From: Escherichia coli | Lineage (GTDB): Bacteria; Pseudomonadota; Gammaproteobacteria; Enterobacterales; Enterobacteriaceae | NCBI RefSeq assembly: GCF_013315695.1 | Contig: NZ_CP054353.1 | Reading direction: 5' to 3' (one strand) | DNA length: 64,000 bases | Part shown: positions 5,236-24,780 of the stretch, one piece after another | Position numbering within the stretch: position 1 is the stretch's first letter | How the letters are laid out: each line of letters opens with the position of its first letter | Notes under the pieces: generated by a model | Told to the model about the DNA's origin: nothing | Seen by the model: the letters and a program-made list of their open reading frames with translations, nothing else | The model's database searches: none | Translations under genes and position numbers: made by a program

Positions 5236-5241
5236 GATTAT

Positions 5242-5839: not shown

Positions 5840-5885
5840 GTGTATTTCACCTTTGCTTTTTAATTTACTCACTGGTGAAATACAC
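5840..5885. promoter_or_regulatory. Perfect 12-bp inverted repeat in divergent promoter region (candidate operator)
   Basis: GTGTATTTCACC (5840-5851) and GGTGAAATACAC (5874-5885) separated by a 22-nt loop, followed by T-rich tract; lies between divergently oriented 67-aa gene and RHH gene. Confidence 0.45.
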
Positions 5886-5951
5886 TTCAAGCCTTTTTTT
5901 ATCATTTTTTTTGCGTATACTGACATACACCAATTTTTAGGAGATCCAGAA

Positions 5952-6131: not shown

Positions 6132-6188
6132 TCACTATCAGCGCCGTGGCGTGAGGTACTCCGGCGCATTGCTTTACAGGTCAGTACT

Positions 6189-6398
6189 ATGAGCAAAAAA
6201 CACCGATCAGCAGATGAGATTTTTGCAGAACAACGAAGATTGCTTTTGCAAAGTATCATTTCACGCCAGCAAGAGAAGGCGCGAGCTAAACAAATGCCAC
6301 CAAATACAGAACCAGCGCCTACAAGATTTGCGCTTGATGATTTTCTCGATAAACACCCCAGGGTAATGAAAGCAAACAAAAACCGCCCACCAGCCTGA
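6189..6398 (+). CDS. Hypothetical protein (69 aa)
   Basis: ORF downstream of RHH gene on same strand, followed by a strong terminator; weak RBS; no recognised family. Confidence 0.35.
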   Translation: MSKKHRSADEIFAEQRRLLLQSIISRQQEKARAKQMPPNTEPAPTRFALDDFLDKHPRVMKANKNRPPA

Positions 6399-6441
6399 TA
6401 GCGGCTATCATCCCCGTGCTTATGTTTAGTGTTTCCAAACT

Positions 6442-6469
6442 GGCGACCTCCCAAGGTCGCCTTTTTTTT
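6442..6469 (+). terminator. Rho-independent terminator
   Basis: GGCGACCT-ccca-AGGTCGCC hairpin followed by T8. Confidence 0.65.
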
Positions 6470-6488
6470 ATGTGCCATTGTCACCACC

Positions 6489-6785
6489 TCAAGCGGCCTT
6501 GCCTGAATTAATGCGTTCGCGGTTTTTGACCCACGCCACAACCTCAGACTTAACCCAGCCAACAGAACGACCGCCGAGACTGATACGGGAGGGGAAGCGG
6601 CCCTGCTTTTCCATCTCGTAACGAGTTGTGCGGCAAACGCCTGTTAGCTCTCTGCATTCTTTTTCGCGGATTACGCGATCTTCATTTATTTCACGCATAC
6701 AAAAACCTACATAAAAATTACGTATATAAACTTTTCTCTTAGCTGTAGATATATGAGATCGGATATTACTTAGATTCTTTTTCAC
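6489..6785 (-). CDS. alpA: AlpA/Vis-family phage transcriptional regulator / excisionase-like
   Basis: C-terminal part matches AlpA-type HTH pattern (ECRELTGVCRTTRYEMEKQGRFP...GGRSVGWVKSEVVAWV). Start uncertain: GTG at 6785 or ATG at 6698. Confidence 0.6.
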   Translation of the reverse strand: MKKNLSNIRSHISTAKRKVYIRNFYVGFCMREINEDRVIREKECRELTGVCRTTRYEMEKQGRFPSRISLGGRSVGWVKSEVVAWVKNRERINSGKAA

Positions 6786-7107
6786 CTCTTAAATTAAAAA
6801 CACAACCATGCTAAAGGCTTTGTTCGCTAAGGTTCGTAGAAGCTCGTTAGTGTTTAAAATCGTGTCACGAGTTTTTAAGCGACGCAACAAAAAATGTCGT
6901 TATTTGGCATGACACCTGAATTACCTCATTAAAAACAAATAGATAAACCATCAGGTGTTGGAACAATCAAGAAACAGAGAATAAGAACTAAGAAGAAGAC
7001 ATTTCAAATTTTTTCAATACTTGACACATATAAATCGTCGATATTTGCCGATATTCGACGATTTATTTTAGAGGGCCATTTTTCGCAAGAAAAACAGCCG
7101 TAATTTG

Positions 7108-8346
7108 TCAAGAATTTTGGGAGTAAATTCGCGGGGTCATAACAACGATTTTTTCATCATTGTTCTGGAGAAGCTCGAGACGCTCAACCCATAGATTAAG
7201 AGCGTCACGTTTTGCATCGAGATAACGGGAGTGATTATAGACTCGTTGCATTCCTGGCAACTGGTGCGCGGTTAGCTGCTCCACTACATGAGGATCCACG
7301 CCTAAATCGTTCAGCATCGTTGTAAACGTGTGCCGGATGTCGTGCAACGTCCAGGGGGCTTGATTAATGCGTCTGTGTGCCGTTCTTCCGTACTCTGATA
7401 CAGATGATTGCCCTTTCAGTTCTCCGAGTAATAAGCCCGTGTGTCGGTTCTGCTCCACCAGCTTCGTTACGAACGGCAAGATCGCTTCCGGTATTGGCCT
7501 GAATATTGCTACCTTCGTTTTGCTGTGTTCTTTCGGCACAGTCCAGAGCATTTCTTTAAAATCCCATTCCTGGACCTCAGAGCGTCTTAGCTCAGTGGTA
7601 CGGCATCCGAAGACAATCAGGAGGCGAATCAGGGCGCTGTAGTACGGTGTGTAAATTTTTTCATCCAGGGCGCGTAGTAATTCCCCAAGCTCCTTGTTTG
7701 TTAGTACGCGCTCGCTTATTTCTGCTTTTTTCCCAACATCACCTACAACCATATCATCTAGAACGTTGGTAATTGCGTAGCGTCGTTTGCGGCAGTACTT
7801 AAGCGCCTGCTTGCATACCTGTAACAAAAATCCTGCTGATACCGGATTACGCATAGCAAGCTGATCAAAACAGGTCAGCCAGTGGCGTAGCTCGCATTTT
7901 TCCAGCGGCATAGCACCAATATGGCTGATTATGTGTGTATTGATCCGGCTTTTCAGAGATTCGTAATCTGTGCGCTTTTCCTTCGCGTACGATTCAAGCC
8001 AGTAAGTGAGCGCTTCCTTAACCGTAACAGGTGATAACGCTTCCTGTACGGTGTGATTAAGCTCATGGCGTGGATTTTTACCCTCAGCAAGCCAGGCGCG
8101 ACACTGCGACGCTTTTTCCCTGGCTGCTTTCAGGCTCAAATCTGGATAATTTCCCAGCCTCAGACGTTCAGGGGCTACCTTCCTGCCTGTTCCGGCCCTG
8201 TAAGTGAAATACCAGGTTAACAGGCCATTGGTTGAATGCCTTACGCTAAGGTTGCCACCATCATTAAAAAAGGTGTTTTTTGTGGTTGGTGATCCGCTTA
8301 ATTTTCGTAAAAGAGTGTCGCTAAGTCTATGAATTGCCCTGCTCAT
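7108..8346 (-). CDS. int: Tyrosine-type site-specific integrase
   Basis: 412-aa ORF; C-terminal catalytic region with HDIRHT and ...VYNHSRY (R-H-R-Y family pattern); located at island edge next to host gene. Confidence 0.85.
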   Translation of the reverse strand: MSRAIHRLSDTLLRKLSGSPTTKNTFFNDGGNLSVRHSTNGLLTWYFTYRAGTGRKVAPERLRLGNYPDLSLKAAREKASQCRAWLAEGKNPRHELNHTVQEALSPVTVKEALTYWLESYAKEKRTDYESLKSRINTHIISHIGAMPLEKCELRHWLTCFDQLAMRNPVSAGFLLQVCKQALKYCRKRRYAITNVLDDMVVGDVGKKAEISERVLTNKELGELLRALDEKIYTPYYSALIRLLIVFGCRTTELRRSEVQEWDFKEMLWTVPKEHSKTKVAIFRPIPEAILPFVTKLVEQNRHTGLLLGELKGQSSVSEYGRTAHRRINQAPWTLHDIRHTFTTMLNDLGVDPHVVEQLTAHQLPGMQRVYNHSRYLDAKRDALNLWVERLELLQNNDEKIVVMTPRIYSQNS

Positions 8347-8401
8347 GTTTCGAATTTCCGGTCATCAAAATTAACTACACCATTGACTACACCGAGCATC
8401 G

Positions 8402-8434
8402 TACAAGGGCGAACTGTGACGAACAAGGGCGAAC
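8402..8434. repeat. Direct repeats (ACAAGGGCGAAC x2) in int-proximal attachment region
   Basis: Two copies of a 12-mer 8 bp apart, plus CGAACAC repeats nearby, between int start and cspD; candidate integrase arm-type sites. Confidence 0.3.
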
Positions 8435-8750
8435 AAGAAAAACGAAATTATCCTTTATAATCATAGAAATAAATGAGATACCTACACCATGACGAACACC
8501 CACGAACACTAACTGATAAATAACTATCATCTATCGTTGGCATCAGCGACATCTGTCACATTCCTGTCAATAGCGTTAACTGCTTCAAATTTTTGATTCA
8601 TACCTGCCCCCTGGCCCCTGTCAAATGCTTGACGGCTCGCCCTAATTCTCTAAATTGTATTTCTAGAGTTGGCGAGGTTTTGAACAGCCCCCTCTCTGAC
8701 CCCGGTTTATTCCATCTTACTTGTATAAGATTTGCGAAGGATGTCGAAGC

Positions 8751-8975
8751 ATGGAAAAGGGTACTGTTAAGTGGTTCAACAATGCCAAAGGGTTTGGTTT
8801 CATCTGCCCTGAAGGCGGCGGCGAAGATATTTTCGCTCATTATTCCACCATTCAGATGGATGGTTACAGAACGCTAAAAGCTGGACAATCCGTTCAGTTT
8901 GATGTCCACCAGGGGCCAAAAGGCAATCACGCCAGTGTTATTGTGCCCGTCGAAGTAGAAGCGGCAGTCGCATAG
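8751..8975 (+). CDS. cspD: Stationary-phase cold-shock-domain protein CspD
   Basis: 74-aa translation MEKGTVKWFNNAKGFGFI... recognised as CspD; ORF track begins upstream at an earlier in-frame ATG. Confidence 0.9.
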   Translation: MEKGTVKWFNNAKGFGFICPEGGGEDIFAHYSTIQMDGYRTLKAGQSVQFDVHQGPKGNHASVIVPVEVEAAVA

Positions 8976-9010
8976 CTCTTCTGTCTCATTGTGTACATCC
9001 TAAAGGCAAA

Positions 9011-9040
9011 ATGCCAGCCCGATCGGCTGGCATTTTTATC
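9011..9040. terminator. Bidirectional rho-independent terminator (cspD / macB convergent)
   Basis: ATGCCAGCC-loop-GGCTGGCAT hairpin flanked by A-run and T-run. Confidence 0.6.
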
Positions 9041-9047
9041 TCAAAAA

Positions 9048-10994
9048 TTACTCTCGTGCCAGAGCATCTACTGGATCCAGTCGTGCCGCATTTCGTGCGG
9101 GTAACCAGCCAAATAAAATCCCGGTGACCGTCGAGCAGAGAAATGCCAGCAGCAGCGCCAACGGTGAAAAACCGATCTCCCAGCCGGGTAAGAAAAGCTG
9201 CAAGGTGAAAGCAATTAACAGTGACAGTGTTATTCCCAACGCGCCACCGACCAGGCAAACCAGTACGGCTTCGATCAGGAACTGTTGCAAAACATCACTT
9301 GCTCGCGCACCTACAGCCATGCGAATGCCAATTTCCCGCGTCCGCTCGGTCACTGACACCAGCATAATATTCATTACACCAATACCGCCCACCACCAGCG
9401 AAATCACCGCCACCAGCGTCAGAAACAGTTGTAAAGTACGTGTGGTCTTTTCAACGGTTTTCAAGACGCCGTCCATGTTCCAGGTAAAGAAATCCTTCTT
9501 ACCGTGGCGCAGTGAAAGTAAACGCGTGAGTTGCTGTTCCGCCTCGGCGCTGTCAAATCCTTCTTTCACCCTGACAGTAATGGAGTTCAGCCACGACTGG
9601 CCCATAACTCGCCCGGACATCGTGCTGTAAGGTAGCCAGACACGCAGCACTTTACTGCTACCAAACATCGACTGTTTTTCTTCCGCCACACCAATGACTC
9701 TGGCGGGCATATTGCCGACCAGAATTACCTCACCAACCACATCTGCTTTATGGGGGAAAAGCTGGCGGCGAGTATTACTGTCGAGAACCACGACCTGCGC
9801 ACGACCGTTCAGCTGCTCCTGATTAAAGGTGTTCCCTTCACTGAAGGTCATGCCATAGACATTAAAATAATCGCCGCTCACGCCATTGGCACTGGCAGCC
9901 ACATCAACATTGTTATAACGCAGGTGCAGGTTTTGCGAGACGGCAGGTGTGGCTGAGGCGACCCACGGTTGTTTTTGGATGGCGATTAAGTCATCGTACT
10001 TCAGCGCCTGCTGATATTGCGGATCGTCATCGCCAAAATCTTTCCCGGGATAGACATCAATAGTATTCGTACCAATAGAACGAATATCCGCCAGCACCAT
10101 TTGTTTGGCGGCGTCGCCCACCACGACAATGGAAACCACCGACGCAATACCGATAATAATCCCCAGCATGGTCAGTAAAGTACGCATTTTATTCGCTGCC
10201 AGCGCCCGCCATGCCATCGTCAGCGCTTCGTTAAAACCGCTGACAAATTGCCGCCAGCCAGAGGCCGTGTTGACAACAGGTTCCGTCCCGCCAGCAACAT
10301 TCACTTTTTCAATGGCGGGAGGATTGCGCACAATTTCACCGTCACGAATTTCGATCACCCGCTCGGCCTGAGCAGCGACCTGCGGATCGTGGGTAACGAT
10401 AATCACCGTATGCCCGCGATCGCGCAGCTGATGCAGGATCGCCATCACCTCTTCGCCAGAATGGCTGTCCAGTGCGCCGGTTGGTTCATCGGCAAGAATT
10501 ACCTGACCGCCGTTCATCAATGCCCGCGCGATGCTGACACGCTGTTGCTGACCACCCGAAAGCTGTGCCGGATAATACTCTGTACGGTCTTCCAGCCCCA
10601 GTCGTTGCAGCAACTCCTGGGCGCGAAGCAGCCGCTGTTTCCGCTCAAGACCAGCATAGACAGCGGGTACTTCAACGTTCTGCTCGGCGGTTAAATGCGA
10701 AAGCAAATGGTAACGCTGGAAAATAAAGCCGAAATGCTCGCGGCGCAGTTGCGCCAGCGCATCGGCGTCCAGCGTGGCAACATCCTGACCGGCGACGCGA
10801 TAGGTGCCGCTGGTGGCCTTATCCAGGCAGCCGAGAATATTCATCAGGGTCGATTTACCGGAACCCGAAGCGCCAACAATCGCTACCATCTCACCGGCAT
10901 AAATATCGAGGCTGATGCCCTTCAGCACCTCAACCTGCTCATCACCGGCAGGATAGCTGCGACGAATATCCTTTAATTCGAGCAAGGGCGTCAT
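9048..10994 (-). CDS. macB: Macrolide export ABC transporter ATP-binding/permease MacB
   Basis: 648-aa ORF with N-terminal ABC ATPase motifs and C-terminal FtsX-like permease; recognised as MacB. Confidence 0.9.
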
Positions 10995-12106
10995 TGTGCA
11001 GCTCCTGGTTTGTCCTCACCAATCACCACTTCATCGCCCGCTTCCAGCCCTTTGACAATCTCAACATCGGTATCGTTACGTGCGCCAATCGTCACTTCAC
11101 GCTCCCGTGTTTCACCATTACGCAACAATTTGACTTTATAACGATTATCGCCAACCGGATCGCCTAACGCCGACAGAGGGATCGTCAGCACATTTTTCAC
11201 ATCGGTGAGCTGAATATGCACTTGCGCGGTCATATCCAGCCGCAGCAAACCATTGGGGTTGGGTACTTCAAAACGGGCGTAATAGAAAATAGCGTCGTTA
11301 ACCTTTTCCGGCGTCGGTAGCACATCCTTGATTTGCCCCTCGTAGCGCGTCAGTGGATCGCCAAGCACCGTAAACCAGGCTTTTTGCCCCGGCTTCAGGT
11401 GGATTACATCCGCTTCAGAAACCTGCGCTTTTACCAGCATGGTGCTCATATCTGCCAGCGTCAGAATGTTCGGTGCTTGTTGTGCGGCAATCACCGTCTG
11501 GCCTTGCAGAGTGGTGATTTGCGTGACTTCCCCGGCCATCGGAGCAACGATGCGGGTGTAATCGAGATTGGTTTTAGCCGTATCGAGAGAGGCCTGATTG
11601 CGCTTGATTTGCGCGTCAATGGTGCCAATTTGCGCCTGTTTCACAGCCATCTCCGTCGCGGCGGTATCGAGATCCTGCTGTGAAACCGCTTGCGTTTGTG
11701 CAAGACGTTGCTGACGGGAATACGTCACCCGCGCCAGTTTCAGCTCCGCTTCCGCCTGCTGCCGCTGCGCGCGTAGCTCCATCAGCGTTGCTTCCACCTC
11801 CTTAATCTGGTTTTCAGCCTGTTCAGGATCAATAACCCCTAAAAGCTGGTCTTTTTTTACTTTATCGCCAATCGCCACCGACAGCGTTTTCAACTGACCG
11901 CTGACCTGCGCGCCCACGTCAACCTTACGCAGCGCGTCCAGCTTTCCGGTCGCCAGCACGCTTTGCTGTAAATCACCGGGGCGCACAATCAGCGTCTGAT
12001 AAGTCGGCTCGGGTGCGTTAAGAATTCTCCATAACGTAATCAGTCCGGCGATGACTATCACCAGCGCAATAACGTAACGCTTCTTCACGGTTTTCCGCTT
12101 TTTCAT
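10991..12106 (-). CDS. macA: Macrolide export periplasmic adaptor MacA
   Basis: Membrane-fusion-protein family; ATGA overlap with macB; start set at MKKRKTVKK. Confidence 0.9.
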
Positions 12107-12220
12107 AAATATTCTGAATACTCCATATGCCAATCCGGGTCATTAACTTCAACGAAATATCAACAAAACCCTAAAATTTACGTTAGTAATCACACTATTG
12201 ATGTTTGGTTAAGATACGCA

Positions 12221-13213
12221 ATGGTGAAATCGACGTCATGTATAATCATTGATTTCATGAATATGTCGCAGCTAACTGAACGGACCTTTACGCCATCTGA
12301 ATCTCTCAGCAGCCTGTCACTTTTTCTTAGTCTGGCACGTGGACAGTGTCGGCCGGGTAAATTCTGGCATCGCCGTAGTTTTCGCCAGAAATTTTTGCTG
12401 CGCTCGTTGATTATGCCGCGTTTAAGCGTTGAGTGGATGAACGAACTTTCCCACTGGCCCAATCTCAATGTGTTGTTAACGCGCCAGCCGCGACTGCCTG
12501 TGCGTCTGCATCGCCCTTACCTTGCGGCGAATCTTAGCCGTAAGCAATTGCTGGAGGCGTTACGTTACCATTATGCGTTACTCCGCGGGTGTATGTCGGC
12601 GGAAGAATTCAGCTTATATTTGAATACCCCCGGGCTGCAACTGGCGAAGCTGGAAGGCAAAAACGGCGAGCAGTTCACGCTTGAGCTGACCATGATGATC
12701 TCAATGGATAAAGAAGGTGACAGCACAATCCTGTTCCGCAACAGCGAAGGTATTCCTCTGGCAGAGATCACGTTTACTCTGTGTGAATATCAGGGGAAAA
12801 GAACAATGTTTATTGGCGGACTGCAAGGCGCAAAATGGGAAATTCCACATCAGGAAATCCAGAATGCGACGAAAGCCTGCCACGGGCTATTTCCCAAACG
12901 CCTTGTGATGGAAGCGGCCTGTCTGTTTGCCCAACGTTTGCAGGTAGAGCAGATTATTGCCGTCAGCAATGAAACGCATATTTACCGCAGCCTGCGTTAT
13001 CGCGATAAAGAAGGCAAGATCCACGCTGATTACAACGCTTTCTGGGAATCGGTTGGCGGCGTATGTGATGCTGAACGCCATTACCGCCTTCCAGCACAGA
13101 TAGCACGAAAAGAGATTGCCGAAATCGCCAGTAAAAAACGGGCTGAATACCGTCGGCGCTATGAGATGCTCGACGCTATTCAGCCACAAATGGCCACAAT
13201 GTTTCGCGGTTAA
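12221..13213 (+). CDS. ybjX: DUF535/VirK-like protein YbjX
   Basis: ORF in conserved K-12 position between macA and ybjD; start may be internal. Confidence 0.75.
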   Translation: MVKSTSCIIIDFMNMSQLTERTFTPSESLSSLSLFLSLARGQCRPGKFWHRRSFRQKFLLRSLIMPRLSVEWMNELSHWPNLNVLLTRQPRLPVRLHRPYLAANLSRKQLLEALRYHYALLRGCMSAEEFSLYLNTPGLQLAKLEGKNGEQFTLELTMMISMDKEGDSTILFRNSEGIPLAEITFTLCEYQGKRTMFIGGLQGAKWEIPHQEIQNATKACHGLFPKRLVMEAACLFAQRLQVEQIIAVSNETHIYRSLRYRDKEGKIHADYNAFWESVGGVCDAERHYRLPAQIARKEIAEIASKKRAEYRRRYEMLDAIQPQMATMFRG

Positions 13214-14868
13214 TCCGCGCGACCGCGCGCCAGCCACAGCACGCGTGAGAACATTTTTTTCAGCAGAGTCGGTACGGAATCCACACCACGACGTCCGGCC
13301 TCCATTGCCACTTCAATGGCAAGATCGGGTTTGGAAGAGCGATGGATCGCTTTCGAGATAATTTTGCGCAGATTCATCGGTACATTTTCCGGGATTTGCG
13401 CCACGCGGTGGAACACATCGGAAAATCCCTGGCGATACATAAAATGTTCCATATCCAGCGCCGGTAACGCCGTTAAATGTTCTCGTTCGGCTTCCCGATC
13501 GTTATTCAACAGGCTGCGTACCGTAGCGGCATATTTCTTCCCTGCTTCATCGCCATCGACCAGTACATGCCATTCAATCCCCATTCGCCGGGCAAATTTC
13601 ACCAGTGGTTTTAGCCCGGACTGGGCAAATTCAATGACCTTAATCCCTTCGGCATCGAAATGGTGTCCACACTGGCGCGCCAGTTCGTTGATAACCCAGG
13701 TTTCTGTTTCCCCTTCCACCAGCAGCCAGCAGCGTGCAAACAGCGATGATGGACGATTAAAACGAATGTGGAAAGAGATGCGTCGGCTATCTTCGGTACT
13801 CAAACCACTCGGCCCCAGACGCCAGGCGGCAACGCGCGAGGACTCACGTACCAGTCGGCAAACATGCTCTACCGGCGTTAACGAAAGCAACTCTCCCGAG
13901 TTGGTAGTAGCGATGCGCTGCAATGGCAGAAGATTCAACAGATGCCAGGCAACTGAAAGCATAATGGGGTGCAAACGGGTTTCTGGATCTTCGATCAGCA
14001 ACAATGGACGGGAGTCTTTATCCAGCCGCAATGTGCCTTTTGCCTGCAATAAAGTAGCAAACAGACCGAGCAAAATAACCCGATACGAGCGCCCTCCAGG
14101 TCGGTCAATCATCCGGTTGATGATATCCAGATAGCGCCAGCTTCGTTGCTCATTGCTGGCTCGCCGCCGCATTAAACGATATCGCGCCTGTCCAGCTCCC
14201 TGCTCAGAGAAATAATGCTCAAGCAGTTGCACCATTGCGGAAAGTCCCTGACGAATCTGTCCATCAGAGAGATTTTGCGGATGTGAGGACAACTCACGGG
14301 CGAGGAAATCGAGCTGGCGCGCGGTGACTTCCACATTAGGGACATTTGGCACCGTGCCGTTACGAATACGGCGCATAAAACGGGCATCACGCAAGCGCAG
14401 CACCGGCATTAAACGCACCAGATGGCGTGCCTGATCGTTAATATCCTCGACATCAATCGGATGTCCGTCTTTATCGAGAAAACTGCGGAGTGTCATCACG
14501 CTGCCGTCTTCCGCACTCTCCCCTTCCAGACGATAAAAAATACGGTGATAGCCATCGGTGCATGGCGTCCAGCACGCTTCCAGCGGCCGATAGCGGCGAA
14601 CCCGATGTCGGCCTGGCAGCGATTCGCGGAAGGTCAAAATAATATGCAGATGATGTTCTCGCCCGTTGATATCTCCCGGCGGGAACCAGAAATCGTCGCG
14701 CTCAAAATGGTAGAGATCTGATTCTGGCGATAGCAGCAGGGTTAAGGCGTCCAGCAAGCTGGATTTACCCCACGCGTTCTCCCCAATCAGGACGTTGTTT
14801 TGTTCCAGCATCAACGACAAACGGTTGATACCGCGAAAACCCACAATTTCAACGCGCTCAAGAATCAT
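13210..14868 (-). CDS. ybjD: OLD-family ATPase/nuclease-like protein YbjD
   Basis: 552-aa ORF with N-terminal P-loop (GENAWGKSS) ATPase; K-12 synteny. Confidence 0.85.
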   Translation of the reverse strand: MILERVEIVGFRGINRLSLMLEQNNVLIGENAWGKSSLLDALTLLLSPESDLYHFERDDFWFPPGDINGREHHLHIILTFRESLPGRHRVRRYRPLEACWTPCTDGYHRIFYRLEGESAEDGSVMTLRSFLDKDGHPIDVEDINDQARHLVRLMPVLRLRDARFMRRIRNGTVPNVPNVEVTARQLDFLARELSSHPQNLSDGQIRQGLSAMVQLLEHYFSEQGAGQARYRLMRRRASNEQRSWRYLDIINRMIDRPGGRSYRVILLGLFATLLQAKGTLRLDKDSRPLLLIEDPETRLHPIMLSVAWHLLNLLPLQRIATTNSGELLSLTPVEHVCRLVRESSRVAAWRLGPSGLSTEDSRRISFHIRFNRPSSLFARCWLLVEGETETWVINELARQCGHHFDAEGIKVIEFAQSGLKPLVKFARRMGIEWHVLVDGDEAGKKYAATVRSLLNNDREAEREHLTALPALDMEHFMYRQGFSDVFHRVAQIPENVPMNLRKIISKAIHRSSKPDLAIEVAMEAGRRGVDSVPTLLKKMFSRVLWLARGRAD

Positions 14869-15293
14869 ATCCCCTCCAGAAATATGTGACTTATCCTTTA
14901 CGCTGGCAGTATAACGGGAAAGGCCATGCTAATACGTGATGACATCACATTTAAGCATGGCAAATGTCTGAAAAATGAGCGAATAATCGCGTTATACTCC
15001 CTCTTGCTGATAAGCCTGCAAAAACAACAAAATCAAATAATTAGCATGATAAATTATTTTTTATTACGCCTAAAGGATTAAATCTTTTGCTTGCACTACA
15101 CTGTCAATCAGACAAATGACTATATGGGGCAACCCGCTGTTGCCCTAAATCAAATTTACTGGATTTATTTATCTGGTGAATGACTCGCCTTCGTTTTTAA
15201 AATAGCCGCGCATTATTTCCGTCGTCACTTTTTTACGACGACCCTATAAAACGACCATATTTTTCACAGGGTCAATTTTTAATTGAGGTGGAT

Positions 15294-15989
15294 ATGTTCA
15301 GAAAATTAGCAGCTGAATGTTTTGGTACTTTCTGGCTTGTTTTTGGTGGCTGTGGTAGTGCCGTACTGGCCGCAGGCTTCCCGGAATTAGGCATTGGTTT
15401 TGCCGGCGTGGCGCTTGCATTCGGTCTGACCGTTCTGACGATGGCCTTTGCTGTTGGTCATATTTCTGGTGGTCATTTTAACCCGGCGGTCACTATTGGT
15501 TTATGGGCTGGCGGACGTTTCCCGGCAAAAGAAGTCGTTGGCTACGTAATTGCCCAGGTTGTCGGCGGTATTGTTGCGGCGGCGCTGCTGTATTTAATTG
15601 CCAGTGGTAAAACGGGTTTTGACGCGGCAGCCAGCGGTTTTGCTTCTAACGGTTATGGCGAGCATTCGCCAGGCGGTTATTCCATGCTTTCCGCGCTGGT
15701 AGTTGAACTGGTATTGAGTGCAGGTTTCCTGCTGGTGATCCACGGCGCAACCGACAAATTCGCTCCGGCAGGTTTTGCGCCGATCGCTATTGGTCTGGCC
15801 TTAACCCTGATTCACTTAATCAGTATTCCGGTGACTAACACTTCTGTTAACCCGGCGCGCAGCACCGCGGTTGCTATCTTCCAGGGCGGCTGGGCGTTAG
15901 AACAACTGTGGTTCTTCTGGGTGGTGCCAATTGTCGGCGGTATTATCGGTGGTCTGATTTACCGGACCCTGCTGGAAAAGCGTAATTAA
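15294..15989 (+). CDS. aqpZ: Aquaporin Z
   Basis: MIP-family channel with two NPA motifs ([14 protein letters not shown]). Confidence 0.9.
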
Positions 15990-16001
15990 TTAACGCAGAA
16001 G

Positions 16002-16027
16002 GCCTGGCGCAATGTCAGGCTTTTTTT
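16002..16027 (+). terminator. aqpZ rho-independent terminator
   Basis: GCCTG-loop-CAGGC hairpin followed by T7 directly after aqpZ stop. Confidence 0.55.
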
Positions 16028-16112
16028 AAAATGTTGTTATATGTTGATTCATCATCTTGTTGCGCTCCTTTCATGAGCTAAGCCACATATTGCCACTGAC
16101 GCAAGGAGCGCG

Positions 16113-16141
16113 CAGGGGGCGGCCAATCGCCGCCGCCCCCT
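16113..16141. repeat. GC-rich palindrome
   Basis: CAGGGGGCGGC-caatcgc-GCCGCCCCCTG, perfect 11-bp arms. Confidence 0.4.
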
Positions 16142-16253
16142 GCCCCCCCGGGCTCTGGCGAACAAAATCGCCGCTGCGCGGTACCCTCGGCTTATCCCTT
16201 GCGGCTACCGGGTCGGGCGCGAGGTAACATATATGGACGCTCCCGGAATGCAA

Positions 16254-16503
16254 TGCTTTCTTCAGTTATGTAATAAAACGGGTAGGTGCAGCCATATATC
16301 CGGTTTCTGATGGGATTTTTATCCCGAACCATGATGAAATCCGCCAGGCAGGTACCAATCATCCTCTACGGGCTAACTTGCCCTTGTTACCTCTCGGTGT
16401 ATCCTGCCTGCGGTCTTACCTGTTTTGCCATCTTCTGAAGTCACCTGCACCTACCAGGACGTTAACTTTTTTTCAGCACCTCGTCAGATTGACTGACCTT
16501 GTG
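16254..16503 (-). ncRNA. Candidate structured non-coding RNA (possible bridge RNA) 3' of IS110-family recombinase
   Basis: 250-nt non-coding region with long-range inverted repeat GGTAGGTGCAG / CTGCACCTACC and local hairpins; bridge-RNA assignment is by analogy only. Confidence 0.25.
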
Positions 16504-17529
16504 TCAGGCGAGCTGCCGAGGTTGATATTCAGTATTGTGTGACAACATTGACCACATGATCCTCGCTGTTTTTGCCGCCATGGCGACAACAGCTACATTG
16601 TAGTGCTTCCGCTCAAGGAGTCCCTGAAGCCAGGAATTCTCCTCAACCGCGCCGTTTCGGTTGACCCAGGCGGTAAGTGCGCGTGCGCCGTGAACCAGCA
16701 GGTATCGGAAATATCCATCTCCACGTTTGCTGATCCCTCCCAGTTGCTGTTTCCCGCCGCTGGAATGTTCCTTTGGTGTCAGCCCCAGCCATGAAGCGAA
16801 CTGCTTTGCGGTACTGAATTGTCGGGCATTACCCACTGCTGCTACCACATAAGTGGCCGTTAGCATGCCAACCCCCGGGATCTTGGCCATTCTCTGGCAG
16901 GCTTCCTGCGTTCTATACCAGGAGGCCAGAGCTTCTTCTACCTGTTTAACTTGTTCTTCAAGTTCCCGGATATGTTTAGACTGTCTGTAGATGCTGGTTC
17001 TGACAAAGGGAGATAAACCATTTTCGCCATCCTCCAGAATGGCTGGCAGCTCACGTGTTAAATGGCTTTGTCCGGCCGCAATCGTAATACCAAACTCAGC
17101 AAGTGTGGCTCTTAAACTATTGGCACAGGCAATCCGCTCACGGATAAGTATTCCCCGTTCAGTGTGTAACGCTAAAACGGCCTGCTGCTCTTCGGTTTTT
17201 ATCTGAACAAAACGCATATTCGGACGGGTTACCGCTTCGCAGATTGCTTCAGCATCTGCTGCATCCGTCTTGTTCGTTTTCACATAAGGCTTCACATACT
17301 GCGGAGGTATGAGTTTTACCTCATGACCATAGCGGGTGAATAATCGCGCAAAATAATGACTGGATGAGCAGGCTTCCATGCCAATCAGACAAGGTTCCAG
17401 TTGAATCACAAACTGAACAAACTTAGCCCGGGTGAGCTTTTTACGCAAAATAGTATGGCCTTCATGATCGACACCATGAAGCTGAAAAACGTTCTTTGCC
17501 AGGTCGATACCAAGAGTTGATACTTTCAT
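16504..17529 (-). CDS. IS110-family transposase/recombinase (DEDD RuvC-like N-domain + C-terminal HhH domain)
   Basis: 341-aa ORF; N-terminus GIDLAKNVFQLHGVD and C-terminal AKIPGVGMLTATYVVAAVGNARQF...GISKRGD match IS110/IS1111 transposase family patterns. Confidence 0.8.
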   Translation of the reverse strand: MKVSTLGIDLAKNVFQLHGVDHEGHTILRKKLTRAKFVQFVIQLEPCLIGMEACSSSHYFARLFTRYGHEVKLIPPQYVKPYVKTNKTDAADAEAICEAVTRPNMRFVQIKTEEQQAVLALHTERGILIRERIACANSLRATLAEFGITIAAGQSHLTRELPAILEDGENGLSPFVRTSIYRQSKHIRELEEQVKQVEEALASWYRTQEACQRMAKIPGVGMLTATYVVAAVGNARQFSTAKQFASWLGLTPKEHSSGGKQQLGGISKRGDGYFRYLLVHGARALTAWVNRNGAVEENSWLQGLLERKHYNVAVVAMAAKTARIMWSMLSHNTEYQPRQLA

Positions 17530-17530
17530 G

Positions 17531-17606
17531 TGGACGCTCCTAATTTTTCAGGACGTATTGCAACGATCCAGTCTGGTACTTTGATACCGTAAAATCTGGA
17601 GCGTCC
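17531..17606 (-). promoter_or_regulatory. RBS-sequestering hairpin in recombinase leader
   Basis: On minus-strand RNA, TGGACGCTCC (from 17606-17597) can pair with GGAGCGTCCA (17540-17531), which contains the GGAG Shine-Dalgarno immediately before the ATG. Confidence 0.4.
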
Positions 17607-17760
17607 ATCTCATTATCCCTGTAAAACGCGCCCTCAGCCCACATCCATGTGGGCTGCCCCGGCCTTCAGGGAACGCCTCGGCGATTTTGACGCCACCAAA
17701 CAACCGTGCGGCCTATTGATAAAGAGCTAACACATTGTCAAAAAACATCACTATGGTTTC

Positions 17761-18708
17761 TTAGAGTTTCTCGATATCAATTGCCTGAATAGCCCTTGCA
17801 ATATCAGGGGAATTATTCAACACCCGAACATGCTGAAATAATTCTGTTGCTTCATCGTATTCTTTACGCAAATAACTCAACCACTGTTTAATCCGCGCTA
17901 CGTGATATAACCCGGTATCGCCCTGCTTTTCCAGACGGGTATATTTTTGCAGCAAAGCAACTACCTCCGGCCACGGCATTCGCGGTTCGTTATATTTTAC
18001 CACCCGGCTCAGGTTGGGAATATTGAGCGCCCCGCGACCAATCATCACTGCGTCACAGCCGCTGATCGCCATGCATTGTTGCGCGCTCTGCCAGTCCCAG
18101 ATTTCACCGTTGGCAATCACCGGAATATTCAACCGCTGGCGAATCTCGCCAATCGCCTGCCAGTCAATATGCTCCGCGCGGTAACCCTGCTCTTTTGTCC
18201 GCCCATGTACTACCAGCTCCGTAGCGCCAGCCTGTTGCACCGCATCGGCGATTTCAAATTTCTTCTCACCGCTGTCCCAGCCCAGACGCACTTTTACGCT
18301 GACGGGCAAATGCGCCGGTACAGCTTCGCGCATCGCTTTTGCACCCTGATAGATGAGTTCAGGATCTTTGAGTAACGTCGCCCCACCGCCGCTACCGTTA
18401 ACCGTTTTCGACGGGCAGCCGCAATTGAGATCCACGCCCCAGGAACCTAACTCGACCGCACGGGCGGCATTCTCTGCCAGCCATTGTGGGAACTGACCTA
18501 ACAACTGCACGCGCACCAGCGTACCGGATGGTGTCCGGCTGGCGTTTTGTAGCTCAGGGCAAATGCGATGAAAGACTTTTACCGGCAGCAGTTGATCCAC
18601 CACGCGGACAAACTCGGTGATGCACAGATCGTAGTCGTTAACTTCGGTCAGCAATTCACGCACCAGAGAGTCGAGTACACCCTCCATCGGTGCCAGTAAC
18701 ACACGCAT
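17761..18708 (-). CDS. dusC: tRNA-dihydrouridine synthase C
   Basis: 315-aa Dus-family TIM-barrel flavoenzyme; recognised as DusC (YohI). Confidence 0.9.
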
Positions 18709-18769
18709 ATCATCACCCGCAAAAAAATGAGGCGCTATGTTAGCGCCTATGGTCAGCGGATTAAAGTAC

Positions 18770-19963
18770 TCAGCGTGGTTGCAAACAGTTATCTTCTTTC
18801 CAGCCGTACAGCCACTCCATGCCGCGGTAAAACTCTGCCTGCGATTTCCCTTTCCACAGCAGGTTACGTACCTGGCGCTCTACTCCTGCGGCATGATAAA
18901 CCCGCCCCATTTCACGGGTCGACCAGATGATGCGCGCGGTGCGCGGTATACGTACCGACTCATACAGCGCAAAGGCTTGTGCCGCATCACCCTCACACTG
19001 CGCCAGCGCCTTACCCAGTGTTACCGCGTCTTCCAGCGCCATACAGGCACCCTGCGCCATATACTGCGCCACCGAATGGGCCGCATCGCCCACCAGCGTA
19101 ATGCGCTTCGTTCCCCACTTCGCTACCGGTTCACGGTCGGCGGTTGACCAGCGTCGCCAGGAGGTCGGTTTATCCAGCATCTGGCGCGGACGGGGGTGAA
19201 TCCCTTCAAAGTAAGAGAGCACTTCCTCTTTACTGCCATCTTTCACGCCCCACTCTTCCTGCTGGCGGCTGTGGAATGTCACCACCAGGTTATACTGCTT
19301 GCCGCCGCGTAAAGGGTAATGCACCAAGTGACAGCACGGCCCCGCCCACAGTACTGGTGCGTTAATGCGCAAATCTTCCGGCATATCGGCACAATCGATA
19401 ACCGCACGGTAGACCACATGCCCGGTGACACGCGGCGCATCGCCCAATAAGCTCTGGCGCACCACTGACTTCACGCCGTCACAGCCAATCAGAATATCGC
19501 CGATCCAACTATTGCCGCGATCGTCGAAAACGGTGACATCGTCTTCTGTCTCGCGAATATCCACGACGTTGGTGGAGGTGTGATATTCCACGTCCGGATG
19601 CGTCAGTACCGCTTCCCACACCGAGGCATGAATATCAACCCGGTGGATCACCGCGTAAGGGCCGCCGAAATGATCGCGAAAGGCCTGACCGGTTTCAATG
19701 CGCACCACTTCTTCGGCGTTTACCGCATCCATCATGGTGATGTGATCGGTGAATACCGCGCGCTGGCGGGCGATTTCGCCGACGCCGAGGCTATCCAACG
19801 CCGAAAACGCATTTGGCCCCAACTGGATACCTGCGCCAATCTCACCGATCTCATGCGCCTTTTCCAGCAGCACCACTTTGATCCCCTGGCGGGCCAGTGA
19901 CAACGCAGTTGCCGCACCGCCGATCCCGCCTCCCACAATTACTGCGCGTGTCACTTTAGTCAT
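18770..19963 (-). CDS. mhbM: 3-hydroxybenzoate 6-hydroxylase (FAD-dependent monooxygenase)
   Basis: N-terminal GGGIGG FAD-binding fold, salicylate-hydroxylase-like; last gene of mhb-type cluster. Confidence 0.7.
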
Positions 19964-19977
19964 TATGGTTCTCCTGG

Positions 19978-20637
19978 TCAGGCTGAAATTTTATCTTGTT
20001 GATTTTCTGGCGCTGCGGCAATGAACGCTGGCAGCTGCGTGCAGGCGTCGTACACCGCTTTGCAGCGCGGATACCCGCTCAGATCGCAGTTCATACGTAG
20101 CGCGTTCGCCCACTGTGGAACAAGGCAGCAATCTGCCAGCGTCGGCGTCTCGCCCACACAAAATTGCCCCGACTGGCTCTGGCGCAGTAGCTGTTCCACC
20201 GCGCTTAACCCTTGCTGGATCCAGTGCGCATACCAGCGTTTTTTATCTTCTTCACTGACGTTCAGCTCTTCGGTCAGGTAGCGCAGCACGCGTAGGTTAT
20301 TCAATGGATGAATATCGCAGGCGATGGCATAGACAATTTCCAGCACCTTGTTGCGGGCCGGTTCTTCCTGCGGCATCAGCGGAACTTGCGGGTAGTGACT
20401 CTCCAGCCAGTCAATAATCGCCAGCGATTGTCCGAGTGATTCGCCCTCGTCGGTCAGCAGCGTCGGCACCAGCCCGACCGGATTCATCCGCCGGTAGGCC
20501 AGTTCGTTTTGCTGACCAATGCGGATATTCACCCCTTCGGTCTGGTAATCGATACCCTTCAGCGCCAGCGCAATGCGCACCCGGTAAGACGCTGAACTAT
20601 TAAAAAAACTGTACAGCTTCATCATCACCTCAGACAA
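19978..20637 (-). CDS. mhbI: Maleylpyruvate isomerase (zeta-class glutathione S-transferase)
   Basis: GST-fold N-terminus ([18 protein letters not shown]) typical of maleylacetoacetate/maleylpyruvate isomerases. Confidence 0.7.
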
Positions 20638-21331
20638 TCTTCACCGCGATAGGCGTTAAGCCCTCGACGTTGCCCGTGATCACATCACCTTTGACTACTG
20701 GGCCAACCCCTTCCGGCGTACCTGTAAAGATTAGATCGCCCGGTTGCAGTTCAAAGAAGCCTGACAGGTAGCTGATGGTTTCATTCACTGACCAGATGAG
20801 ATGACGAATATCGCTGCGCTGATGATCTTCGCCGTTAACCTGTAACCAGATAGGTGCGTTATCAATACCGCCAGTTTCGCTGGCTTTGTGCAGCGGCGCG
20901 ATGGGGGCCGAGAGATCGAACGCTTTGCCGATTTCCCACGGGCGGCCCATCTGGCGCATTTCCATTTGACGGTCACGGCGAGTCATATCAAGACCCGTGG
21001 CATAACCCCAGACATATTCATGGGCGTTTTCCAGCGGGATATCACTGCCTTTTTTACCAATCGCCACCACCAGTTCAATTTCATAATGGTAGTTATCGGT
21101 CTGCGCCGGATACGGCAGCGCCAGCGTTTCGCCAGCGGCAACCGGAACAACGGCATCCGCCGGTTTGCAGAAGAAGAATGGCGGTTCACGATCCGGATCA
21201 AAGCCCATTTCACGGGCGTGGGCGGCATAGTTACGTCCGACGCAGTAAACGCGGCGTACGGGGAATTGTTCATCACTGCCAACAACCGGTACGGTAACGG
21301 GCGCTTGTGGTTCGAATACGTATTGAGTCAT
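20630..21331 (-). CDS. mhbH: Fumarylpyruvate hydrolase (FAH family)
   Basis: FAH-family pattern ([16 protein letters not shown]...). Confidence 0.7.
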
Positions 21332-21346
21332 TTTCTCTCTCCCAAA

Positions 21347-22375
21347 TTAATAACGCGCTTCGCGGAACAGCCCCAGGGCTTCTTGTACCGGTCTGTCCGA
21401 AAAACTAAATAAAACGGTATCTTGCGTGGTCTGGAACGACACGCCGTGCCAGGTCGGCACCACGAAGATATCTTTTGCACTAAAGCTGAAGGTTTCATTG
21501 CCGATAGTGACCTGCCCGCTACCTTCCACCACATGGTAGATGGTGCTGTCAGTGGTACGCGCCACGCGTGAGGCAAACCCTTTCGGCAGCAGTTGCAGGA
21601 AAGCGCCCATCGACGGCATCGGATAGCCACCGGTGACCGGGTTGACGTAGCGCATTTTGTAGCCATCCCACTCATCGGCATCGCCCAGGCGGGTTAAATC
21701 GTGTAGCACTTCGCGGCTACGCTCATAACGGTAGTTAAAGATGGGCGAGGAGTTCCCGGTCTGATGGCGCAGCGGCAACATATTGGCAGCGTAACGCGGC
21801 AGATAATCGCCCTCTTTACGCGTTACTGGTTGTTGCTCCTCCGGGTAATCTTCGGCAAAACCGCAGCCCAGAGTGTTCACTAATGGCAGATCCAGCCCAT
21901 CGAGCCAGATAACCGGTTCGTCGCCAGGGTTACCGTGATCGTGCCAGCGCCACTGCGGGGTCAGGATAAAATCGCCCTCATTCATTGGCGTGCGTTCGCC
22001 ATCAACGGCGGTGAATGCCCCTTTACCTTCAACAATAAAACGCAGCGCCGACTGGTTATGGCGATGACTCGGTGCCACTTCGCCCGGCATGATCAGTTGC
22101 AAACCGGCATATAAAGTCGCGGTGATGGAAGACTGCCCGCGCAGCGCCGGGTTTTCCAGCACCAGCACGCGGCGCACGGCTTCTTTCGCGCCAATCAGGC
22201 TGCCGCTCTCCAGCAGCAGCGGGCGGATCTCCTGATAATTCCAGTACGCTGGCGCACAGTTAGCGTTGGGCGTTTTTGGCACCAGATGGTGCAGTGACTC
22301 CCACAGAGGGGTCAGGTTTTGCCCGGAAATATACTGATAAAATTGCTCGCGGCTATTTTGATTGTTATCAGTCAT
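21347..22375 (-). CDS. mhbD: Gentisate 1,2-dioxygenase (bicupin)
   Basis: 342-aa cupin protein with His-rich metal motif ([13 protein letters not shown]) and gentisate-dioxygenase-like N-terminus. Confidence 0.75.
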
Positions 22376-22386
22376 TGGGATGCTCC

Positions 22387-23745
22387 TTATTCGTTCACAA
22401 CACCTGCGTGAGGCAGTGAGTCAGGGACAGAGGTCGACTGGCGAACCACGGTGATCAGCAGGGTTAACATCACCGCACTGATCGCCGCGGGCACAGCGAT
22501 AATGAAAAACAGAGTGTCGAAAGAGAAATTCATCGCCATCATCACGCCGCCAGACAGCGAGCCAACAATCGCGCCGCAGCGGCCCACGGCGTTTGACCAG
22601 CTCACGCCCGTGGCGCGACTTTGTGTTGGATAAAGTGTTGCGGTCAGCGCATTCAGCCCCACCTGCGATCCGCTGATGCCAATGCCGGTGCCGAAAATCG
22701 CCAGCGCCATTAGCCATAATCCGTCCTGGCTTAAGCCAATCATCACGATGCATACAGCGCCTATGGCATAGCTCAGCGCCAGTACGCGGAAAGGATTGAA
22801 CTTATCCATCAGCACGCCCAGCGCCAGCGCGCCCAACGTACCGCCAATCTGGAACGCGGCGGTAACCCAGGAGGCATGTTGCAGGTCGATGCCGCGATGG
22901 TTGAGCAGCGTTGGCATCCAGCTTGAGAGCAGGTAAATAATCAGCAAGCTCATAAAGAACACCACCCACAGCATCAACGTGATGGGTAACTGACGCCCCA
23001 TAAACAGTTGACGAATGCTGCCTTTTGTAACGGAGGCTGATTCAATGAGATAAAAGTGGGTATCGACATAACGCTCGCGGGTGATGGCGCTGACGGTTTT
23101 CGCAATCACCGCCTGGGGTAGCTGGCGGCGCACCTGCCAGCGTGGCGATTCCGGCAGAACCACCAGCAGTGCAACAAACAGCATCAGCGGTAATACGCCA
23201 CCCAACACCAGGATCCCGTGCCAGCCAATCACCGGCACCAGCTGCGCGCTGACAATCCCACCAAACGCCGAACCCAGGGTAAAGCCGCAAAACATCAGCG
23301 TCACCAGCGCGCCGCGGCGGCGGGCAGGCAGATATTCCGAGGTCATGGTAATTGTGTTTGGCATCGCGCCACCCAGCCCAAGGCCGGTGAGGAAACGGAG
23401 GAATACTAGCGTTTGCAGATCCGGTGAGAAAGCCGAGGCGAGGCTTAACGCGCCAAACAAAAAGACGCACAGCTCAATCACCCGTTTGCGGCCAAAGCGA
23501 TCGGACAACGGACCACAAAGCAGTGCGCCTGCGGTTAACCCCAGCAGACCCGCGCCAAAAAGCGGGGCGAGATCGCCTGCGGTGAGTTGCCAGTGAGTGC
23601 GAATATCAGGGGCGATAAAGCCGATAGCCGCGGTGTCAAAACCATCGAGCATTACCACCAGAAAACAGCAGATGATAACGCGCCACTGCATCTTGCCGAC
23701 CGGAGCAGCATCGATCAGTGCTTGTAAATCACGTCGTTGAGTCAT
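22387..23745 (-). CDS. mhbT: MFS aromatic-acid transporter (3-hydroxybenzoate transporter-like)
   Basis: 452-aa, 12-TM MFS profile; first gene of the catabolic operon. Confidence 0.7.
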
Positions 23746-23871
23746 AGTAAATGCCTCAGTGCAGGTAAGGTAGATGTTTCTTTTGTTTTATGTATGTTGC
23801 GATATTGTGATTAAAGAGATGAAATGTACAATGGCATTTCGGGCAGAGAGATAACCTGGAGGTTATGGCAA

Positions 23872-24780
23872 ATGGCAAACTGGGCGCAGAAACTAAAGCT
23901 TCATCACCTGCAAATGCTGGTGGCGCTGGGTGAACAGGGCAATCTGACCCATGTGGCGCGGATGATGAATATCACCCAGCCTGCGCTGTCGAAATGGTTG
24001 TCACAACTCGAAGATGAGATCGGCCTCACACTCTTTGAGCGGCACAGCAAAGGGTTACGCCCTACCGAAGGCGGTAGATTGTTATTGCAACATGCCCAGC
24101 GGTTAATCAATGACATGGAGCGCTCGCAACATGAACTGGCCCGTTTTAAACAAGGTGGGCTGGTCGGCAGTCTGAAAATTGGCTGTTCTCCCGTCGCCAC
24201 TGACTGCGTATCACAGGCGATTTTGCATTTGCTCAAGGAGATGCCAACTCTACACCTGAATATTGAAGAGAAGGTTATGACCCCATTGCTGCAAGATCTG
24301 TTGGCAGGTTCTGTCGACGTGGTCGTTGGGCGAATTGGCGGTCGCGCCTTGCAGCTGCCACTGAATTATAAGGTGCTCTACACCGAGCCGGTGTGTTTTG
24401 TCGCCCGTGCTGAGCATCCACTGGCGAAATACGCCACCCTCAGCTGGAATGATCTTGCTAACTGGCGGTGGATAGTCTGGCCGACAGGTACCCCCATTCG
24501 CATCAGTATTGATAATGCGCTGGTAGACCACGGCGTGATGCTGCCAGAAAACACGATTGAGTCGGCGTCGATGAACGTCAGTACCAACCTGTTACAAAGC
24601 AGCGATATGATCTCTATTTTGTCATTACGCCTGGCGCAACGTTATGCCAGCCAGGGACAACTGGTGATCCTCAACCTGCCAAAGATAGAACAGAAAGGCA
24701 GCGTCGGTGTGTTCTGGCGCAATAACGAAACGCCTTCTTATGCTTTAAGTCAGTTTCTGCACTTTTTACAGCAGAATTAG
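23872..24780 (+). CDS. mhbR: LysR-family transcriptional regulator of the gentisate cluster
   Basis: N-terminal LysR HTH (LQMLVALGEQGNLTHVARMMNITQPALSKWLSQLE); divergent from operon; start set at MANWAQK with GGAGG RBS. Confidence 0.75.
   Translation: MANWAQKLKLHHLQMLVALGEQGNLTHVARMMNITQPALSKWLSQLEDEIGLTLFERHSKGLRPTEGGRLLLQHAQRLINDMERSQHELARFKQGGLVGSLKIGCSPVATDCVSQAILHLLKEMPTLHLNIEEKVMTPLLQDLLAGSVDVVVGRIGGRALQLPLNYKVLYTEPVCFVARAEHPLAKYATLSWNDLANWRWIVWPTGTPIRISIDNALVDHGVMLPENTIESASMNVSTNLLQSSDMISILSLRLAQRYASQGQLVILNLPKIEQKGSVGVFWRNNETPSYALSQFLHFLQQN

Follow-up and report, generated by a model that had tools for sequence, protein, structure and literature searches.

The window, that is, the whole 64,000-nucleotide stretch of Escherichia coli DNA analysed here, was found to contain a junction between aqpZ and dusC, two genes located far apart in E. 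coli K-12, with an insertion sequence (IS) of the IS110 family, IS1111 type, lying between them in the centre of a TRIP1 repeat. In K-12, one copy of this repeat (TRIP1a) lies between lysO and aqpZ and another (TRIP1c) between yohP and dusC, and the copy in the window was shown to be a hybrid of the two. The junction represents one end of an inversion of the replication terminus region that probably took place through homologous recombination within the composite of repeat and element (TRIP1::IS). The features of the junction are as follows.

15294–15989, plus strand: aqpZ (aquaporin Z), an open reading frame (ORF) annotated in the 100% identical sequence LR898874.1 and corresponding to K-12 aqpZ b0875; the last gene inside the inverted segment at this junction
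16052–16230: hybrid TRIP1, left arm, whose outer end stems from TRIP1a, with the AT core at 16229–16230
16231–17614, minus strand: IS110-family element of IS1111 type, 1,384-bp body
16231–16503, minus strand: right end of the IS, a non-coding region of 273 nt located 3′ of the transposase gene
16233–16243: subterminal inverted repeat, right-end copy
16504–17529, minus strand: DEDD-type transposase gene, 341 aa
17530–17614, minus strand: left end of the IS, 85 nt, 5′ of the transposase gene
17598–17608: subterminal inverted repeat, left-end copy (GGAGCGTCCAT on the plus strand)
17615–17709: hybrid TRIP1, right arm, whose outer end stems from TRIP1c, with the AT core at 17615–17616
17761–18708, minus strand: dusC (yohI), supported by ORF and annotation; the first gene beyond the inverted segment

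The gene order in K-12 (NC_000913.3) is hcp-lysO(ybjE)-aqpZ-ybjD at 0.914–0.918 Mb and mdtQ-yohP-dusC-yohJ at 2.227–2.231 Mb, so that the K-12 neighbours named in the original prediction, which had been made from the sequence alone, were correct. In the window, the spacer between the convergent genes aqpZ (plus strand) and dusC (minus strand) was 1,771 bp long and contained the IS110-family element. Positions 8514–15989 corresponded to cspD-macBA-ybjX-ybjD-aqpZ, the K-12 order in reverse, and positions 17761–64000 followed the K-12 order from dusC to lpxT. The prediction had taken everything on both sides to be colinear with K-12. Leftward this held as far as position 8514 or so, where an island encoding an integrase, a primase and a capsid protein (1–8513) takes over, and rightward it held up to lpxT, except that a 6-kb cluster for 3-hydroxybenzoate/gentisate catabolism (18770–24780) and an IS1 (~49.3–50.0 kb), both missing in K-12, intervene. 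The sequence LR898874.1 from strain MSB1_4I showed 100% identity to window positions 14800–19000 and 99.98% identity over 8514–64000, and its annotation to the right of the junction reads dusC, the six-gene 3-hydroxybenzoate/gentisate cluster, yohJK and cdd, and onward to lpxT. The break in synteny at aqpZ-dusC was thus confirmed as real, and it is not an assembly artefact because 85 independent complete assemblies, that of strain SMS-3-5 included, have aqpZ joined to dusC.

A BLAST comparison of window positions 15901–17900 with both K-12 loci showed that the sequence flanking the IS on either side matches both of them. The K-12 lysO-aqpZ and yohP-dusC spacers contain one 272-bp repeat each, identical at 256 of 272 positions and in inverted orientation (Plus/Minus), and both copies are uninterrupted. 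This repeat is TRIP1 (Rudd, 1999), whose copies TRIP1a and TRIP1c were catalogued by Li et al. (2024; PMC10888264) as ~266–273 bp long with 62–65% G+C and 94% identity between the two, TRIP1a lying ~70 bp past the aqpZ stop codon and TRIP1c ~43 bp past that of dusC/yohI. In the window, the TRIP1 arms begin ~63 bp after the aqpZ stop codon and finish ~52 bp before the dusC stop codon. The arm on the aqpZ side is part of a 96.7% match to K-12 (window 15901–16230), and by itself showed 91.6% identity to the matching arm of TRIP1c; the right arm is part of a 98.9% match to the dusC-proximal region of K-12 and showed 96.8% identity to the matching arm of TRIP1a. The element splits TRIP1 centrally, at the same point whichever K-12 locus is used for comparison. 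The empty site reads GAGGTAAC-AT-CCCTGTAAAACG and the occupied site …GGTAAC-AT/ATATGGACG…CTCATT/AT-CCCTG, where the slashes mark the IS ends. Thus, the predicted join of aqpZ and dusC across an IS110-family element was borne out, although the element does not lie in plain 3′ flanking sequence of aqpZ but is nested in a repeat common to both loci. The unbroken identity around the centre of TRIP1 is ~107 bp in K-12. Among the 5,426 complete E. coli genomes used for all counts given here, 5,425 matched a TRIP1c query, at a median of three places per genome.

The boundaries of the IS were set by the empty sites of K-12 and by a naturally excised site in strain KFu014 (see below). The insertion amounts to 1,386 bp compared to empty TRIP1, i.e., the 1,384-bp body and an extra AT, because AT flanks the element on both sides. 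The transposase ORF matched the NCBIfam model NF033542 ("IS110 family RNA-guided transposase") with 359 bits (cut-off 140) and the Pfam domains PF01548 (residues 6–146, E = 1e-14) and PF02371 (residues 211–289, E = 4.4e-24), and hence contains both the N-terminal DEDD/RuvC-like domain and the C-terminal PF02371 domain that the IS110 family requires. According to Siddiquee et al. (2024; PMC11187229), the IS1111 subgroup is recognized by subterminal inverted repeats, a longer non-coding part on the downstream side of the transposase gene, and a transposase of 330–350 aa with the motif GL-P----S(T)G. All of these traits were found: the transposase falls within this size range and carries a C-terminal GLTPKEHSSG motif, the longer non-coding part lies downstream of the gene (273 nt vs. 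85 nt upstream), and an 11-bp perfect inverted repeat, ATGGACGCTCC, is located at a distance of 6 nt from the left and 2 nt from the right tip. The PGAP annotation of the element gives only the family name. If the ends were joined (right end, AT, left end), they would form a promoter-like sequence TTGCAT-N16-TATAAT facing the transposase gene; this promoter was predicted in silico and resembles the circle-junction promoter described for ISEc11. Besides, the subterminal repeat was found once more in inverted form, and this additional copy, GGAGCGTCCA (17531–17540; IS positions 75–84 in gene orientation), was seen to overlap the AGGAG ribosome-binding site that sits right before the transposase ATG, and its pairing with the left-tip repeat (positions 8–17) could mask the ribosome-binding site in read-through transcripts.

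The insertion was shown directly to be site-specific. The insertion point, GAGGTAAC-AT/IS/AT-CCCTGTAAAACG, was identical at TRIP1a, at TRIP1c, at the hybrid copies and at a TRIP1-like copy in the asmA-yegH spacer, with only AT repeated and no long target duplication, and the orientation of the IS relative to TRIP1 was constant at these four kinds of locus. In having one fixed target and orientation and in its exact excision, the element resembles ISEc11, ISPa11 and IS4321 of the IS1111 subgroup, but it differs from the described IS1111 members (PMC11187229) in its target, which is the middle of TRIP1 in E. coli, and no paper reporting this target was found in the literature searched. The asmA-yegH copy, which is diverged (~80–93% identity to TRIP1a and TRIP1c) and is not among the five TRIP1 loci of Li et al. 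(2024; PMC10888264), was found in strains IR53017 (L007, 2887–4457) and JX21CE8 (L008, 2887–4456), where it holds the sole copy of the IS, at the same central site. Another arrangement was seen in the dusC-yohP spacer of the O170:H18 strain CFIAFB20120266 (L009, 2812–4484), in which the whole TRIP1 together with the IS is flipped relative to dusC and yohP; the flipped repeat lies ~40 bp from the dusC stop codon, as is usual for this site, and is nearer in sequence to TRIP1a than to TRIP1c. This in-place flip is not accounted for by a simple crossover within TRIP1.

The element was present in 179 of the genomes with a median of two copies, and 175 genomes contained a near-full-length copy at ≥99% identity. 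A query of the aqpZ-dusC junction with the IS removed identified 85 genomes with the inverted arrangement, 84 of which carry the element between the two genes (aqpZ-IS-dusC). A chimeric query for the reciprocal junction (mdtQ, yohP, TRIP1c arm, IS, TRIP1a arm, lysO) likewise identified mdtQ-yohP-IS-lysO in 84 genomes. In six genomes (MSB1_4I, SMS-3-5, XH992, GF131, CREC-544 and KFu014), the two junctions were examined directly, and each genome contained one repeat copy per junction, in opposite orientation and with the flanks swapped reciprocally; the IS occupied both junctions in five of the six, KFu014 being without it at aqpZ-dusC. The second IS copy that the original prediction expected at the reciprocal junction was therefore found, in MSB1_4I as in the other five, and the same gene order with a reciprocal site free of the IS was seen in none of the six. 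In CREC-544, the IS110-family copy at the yohP-lysO junction (L023, 1095–3740) contains an IS3-family element (~1.26 kb) in its left end that truncates the transposase gene, and the same IS3-family annotation was present in ~30 of 40 records among the matches listed for mdtQ-yohP-IS-lysO; this insertion marks a large sub-clade of the inverted genomes.

KFu014 was the sole genome with an IS-free hybrid TRIP1, as judged by a short query that only such a hybrid can cover. Its empty site (L011, 2989–3001) equals the SMS-3-5 junction minus exactly 1,386 bases, with 458 of 458 aligned bases identical, and the IS is kept at its lysO-yohP junction (L013, 12457–13840). The empty site is thus the product of an exact excision within the inverted lineage, and the element appears to be active in nature. 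The aqpZ-TRIP1-dusC junction was not found in any of the ~5,250 of 5,426 genomes that are free of the IS. Occupied sites were also found in the non-inverted order, as aqpZ-IS-lysO in 8 genomes and as mdtQ-yohP-IS-dusC in 10. Five non-inverted genomes (CE10, XJ6.1, JNEC-KY178, Res13-Lact-PER13-34 and LR778147.1) contained the IS in both TRIP1a and TRIP1c, and the state before inversion, or a reverted one, therefore occurs in nature.

The size and position predicted for the inversion, ~1.3 Mb and roughly symmetric about the terminus, agreed with the MG1655 coordinates. The endpoints lie at 915,110 and 2,229,293, with 1,314,183 bp (1.314 Mb) between the insertion points, and at 675.6 and 638.5 kb from dif (1,590,750–1,590,771), which puts the midpoint 18.6 kb from dif. 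The GC skew was negative on either side of the junction without a change of sign there, as expected because the segment both moves to the other replichore and flips. In the four of the six inspected genomes in which it was measured, the inversion spans 1.35–1.55 Mb: the IS genes of MSB1_4I lie at 1,856,477 and 3,405,936 (1.55 Mb apart), those of SMS-3-5 at 910,096 and 2,314,068 (1.40 Mb apart), and the junctions of CREC-544 and KFu014 are 1.36 and 1.35 Mb apart, respectively.

The places of exchange were mapped in 18 IS copies and the inner TRIP1 arms by means of diagnostic IS positions 411, 826, 836 and 1308. The non-inverted strain CE10 served as a guide to which variants belong to the TRIP1a copy (A-type) and which to the TRIP1c copy (B-type); J1 denotes the copy between yohP and lysO and J2 the copy between aqpZ and dusC. 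The following patterns were found.

SMS-3-5, XH992 and GF131: J1 A-type throughout, J2 B-type throughout; exchange to the left of position 411
Window and MSB1_4I: J1 BBBA, J2 AAAB; reciprocal switch between positions 836 and 1308, inside the IS (J1 reads TGT followed by C, J2 CTC followed by T)
CREC-544: several switches each in J1 and J2, also in the right TRIP1 arm, 54–85 bp outside the IS

The two copies have thus exchanged sequence repeatedly, at varied points in the ~1.65-kb TRIP1::IS composite. Besides, the B copy of CE10 contains a non-reciprocal A-type patch at its right end, and gene conversion therefore also occurs. A single crossover point was considered and rejected, as the 18 copies are mosaic with several switches and non-reciprocal patches, and only exchange at several places within the composite can be claimed. 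Recombination between IS copies, as the original prediction had proposed, is supported by the reciprocal switch inside the IS in the window and MSB1_4I; the CREC-544 pattern extends exchange to the TRIP1 arms, and the homologous mode of the exchange is suggested by these patterns. The IAI39 copy at the inverted yohP-lysO junction was the same as the CE10 copy at the non-inverted aqpZ-lysO site, including a variant private to both, and inversion state therefore differs among close relatives, which hints at recurrence or reversal of the inversion. CE10 belongs to phylogroup F, of which SMS-3-5 and IAI39 are reference strains.

These results fit a mechanism that starts from TRIP1a and TRIP1c as inverted copies on opposite replichores at nearly equal distances from dif. 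The IS1111-type element would insert in the TRIP1 centre in its one fixed orientation, probably guided by an RNA from the non-coding region downstream of its transposase gene. Occupation of both copies would turn a 272-bp, 94% identical inverted repeat into one of ~1.65 kb with >99% identity, and homologous recombination within TRIP1::IS would then invert the intervening DNA to give aqpZ-IS-dusC and mdtQ-yohP-IS-lysO. Because the inversion is nearly symmetric about dif, the replichores would stay balanced, strand bias would be kept and the Ter fork trap would retain its polarity, and the arrangement seems to be tolerated, persisting in lineages that include SMS-3-5 and IAI39.

With regard to guidance, a candidate seekRNA guide of 9 nt, GAGGUAACA, was found on the minus strand at 16385–16393, within the 273-nt non-coding region. 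It is complementary to the top strand of the target, TGTTACCTC, and adjoins the AT core; a core-touching match as long as GAGGUAACA had a probability of ~0.02 in 5,000 shuffles. The predicted fold of the downstream non-coding region had a z-score of −2.98 and placed the candidate guide inside an internal loop. In the seekRNA of IS1111, the match to the top strand is placed 5′ of that to the bottom strand (PMC11187229). For the bottom strand, the candidates here were weak: either the 5-nt GGAUG, which lies 3′ in the internal loop that contains the candidate guide, or the 7-nt CGUUUUA, located 113 nt downstream. An Rfam scan of window positions 15000–19000 at E ≤ 1 returned only a chance miRNA match and no bridge RNA or seekRNA family. 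On the strength of the single 9-nt match, RNA-guided targeting is plausible.

The published reading of the rearrangement is homologous recombination between bare TRIP1a and TRIP1c, in which case the IS would be a mere passenger, having inserted into the hybrid TRIP1 copies earlier or later than the inversion and without influence on it. The two repeats are inverted and share 94% identity over 272 bp, Li et al. (2024; PMC10888264) reported 156 rearrangements involving various types of TRIP1 repeat, and some exchange points of CREC-544, in the right TRIP1 arm, lie beyond the IS. On the other hand, the uninterrupted identity available to such an exchange is ~107 bp in K-12 compared to ~1.6 kb with the IS, and the inverted junction was absent from all of the ~5,250 IS-free genomes. 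The lone empty hybrid TRIP1, that of KFu014, is an excision product with the IS kept at the other junction, and the reciprocal switch in the window and MSB1_4I falls inside the IS. Taken together, we consider recombination of the bare repeats unlikely to be the explanation. Another possibility is that the IS transposase, which is a DEDD recombinase of the bridge-RNA/seekRNA type, itself catalysed a site-specific inversion between sites at the two loci. IS110-family recombinases are said, in work attributed to Durrant and colleagues in 2024, to be programmable to invert DNA between donor and target sites, and the present element has an intact transposase gene and, from the exact excision in KFu014, appears to be active. 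A reaction between donor and target would not, however, leave a complete IS between TRIP1 halves at each junction, and the exchange points vary by lineage and are scattered over the IS and the TRIP1 arms, a pattern that fits homologous rather than site-specific recombination. This explanation, which fits neither the junction products nor the scattered exchange points, was set aside as very improbable. A misassembly across a repeated IS is even less credible: IS copies are a classic source of misjoins, which the window alone cannot exclude, but the junction and its reciprocal were found in 84–85 independent complete genomes from many laboratories and sequencing platforms, and one genome has the junction without any IS.

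Homologous recombination within TRIP1::IS is considered the likely explanation. The counts by genome suggest a role for the IS, and the element probably supplies most of the homology at the junctions; we infer that the exchange was of the RecA type and that the IS, rather than bare TRIP1, was the cause. Several observations weigh against this. The association between IS and inversion carries little statistical weight because the 85 genomes are related and may stem from few independent events, the counts not being phylogenetically independent, and direct confirmation that a genome belongs to both groups of 84 covers only six genomes. Gene conversion blurs the markers, so that the crossover of the original inversion cannot be located, and the typing of A and B variants hangs on a single relative without the inversion, CE10, which has a mosaic B copy. 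The presence of some CREC-544 exchange points in a TRIP1 arm shows that TRIP1 homology alone can support exchange. Finally, as a part of the guidance model, the candidate bottom-strand guide of 5–7 nt is weak.

A more far-reaching reading would be that an undescribed, TRIP1-specific and seekRNA-guided IS1111-type element, not TRIP1, drives the inversion, and that the resulting 1.65-kb cassette has flipped a terminus domain of 1.3–1.55 Mb repeatedly and reversibly within phylogroup F. This is put forward tentatively, as somewhat less probable than its opposite, because CE10 (non-inverted) and IAI39 (with an inverted junction) share private variants and because the exchange points differ by lineage. 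If it is true, the arrangement would be a polymorphism that arises again and again, as opposed to one event that became fixed.

The island and other features of the window were as follows.

12–1067, minus strand: major head protein (island 1–8513)
2816–4954, minus strand: primase, 712 aa (island 1–8513)
7108–8346, minus strand: integrase (island 1–8513)
18770–24780: 3-hydroxybenzoate/gentisate cluster, comprising genes for a 3-hydroxybenzoate 6-monooxygenase, maiA, a fumarylpyruvate hydrolase-like gene, gtdA, mhbT and a LysR regulator

The island at 1–8513 adjoins cspD, is not colinear with K-12 or MSB1_4I and was absent from the MSB1_4I record by BLAST. It also encodes a single-stranded DNA-binding protein (SSB) and a repressor-like protein, and its content resembles that of a phage satellite or a small prophage remnant. 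Window positions 1–9500 were covered to at least 80% in 4 of the 5,426 genomes. The six-gene catabolic cluster between dusC and yohJ was missing in K-12 and in SMS-3-5. According to the annotation of the 99.98% identical LR898874.1, an IS1A copy is located between yeiL and rihB (~49327–50024), and cirA (~38893–40884) is a pseudogene with an internal stop codon.

The inversion as such has been published before. A TRIP1a/TRIP1c inversion of 1,313,407 bp in SMS-3-5 was described by Li et al. (2024; Genes 15:236, PMC10888264), who counted, among 6,725 genomes, 68 junctions of the aqpZ-yohI and 58 of the ybjE-yohG type and attributed these to the TRIP1 repeats. Goodall et al. (2021; PMC8347550) noted that the termination area of SMS-3-5, which spans terE, D, A, C and B, is inverted while its fork trap remains intact. 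The SMS-3-5 inversion (PMC10888264) involves the same loci (the aqpZ/ybjE and yohI/yohG spacers), gives the same aqpZ-yohI and ybjE-yohG types of junction and has the same size as that of the window, and SMS-3-5 carries the aqpZ-dusC junction of the window; it differs from the window strain in lacking the gentisate cluster beside dusC. The element is not part of that description: in the text of Li et al. (2024; PMC10888264), "transposase" occurs 0 times and IS110 solely in the title of a reference. Our literature search found nothing tying an IS110-family element to the terminus inversion or to TRIP1. What is new is thus the TRIP1-specific IS1111-type element at the junctions, together with its natural exact excision.

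IS- and repeat-mediated symmetric inversions form a familiar class, to which the inversion mediated by inverted rrn operons across the replication axis between W3110 and MG1655 also belongs. Like that inversion and those caused by IS in the E. coli long-term evolution experiment (PMC4173774) and in Streptococcus pyogenes (PMC11602124), the inversion seen in the window involves inverted repeats on opposite replichores, has endpoints about equidistant from the terminus and leaves the genes intact. It differs in that the repeat consists of a site-specific IS lodged within a native repeat of low copy number, and the host repeat, not chance insertion, therefore sets the position and orientation of the copies.

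For E. coli, these results mean that the present megabase-scale break in synteny relative to K-12 is a trait shared by the lineage of a known group, with balance around dif and no apparent selective effect, and that the aqpZ-dusC break should not be taken as a misassembly or a strain-specific event. The likely cause shifts from a diverged repeat of 272 bp to a near-identical one of 1.65 kb. The terminus inversion also provides a natural case of a site-specific, probably RNA-guided IS that is pre-positioned by its fixed target for symmetric remodelling of the chromosome.

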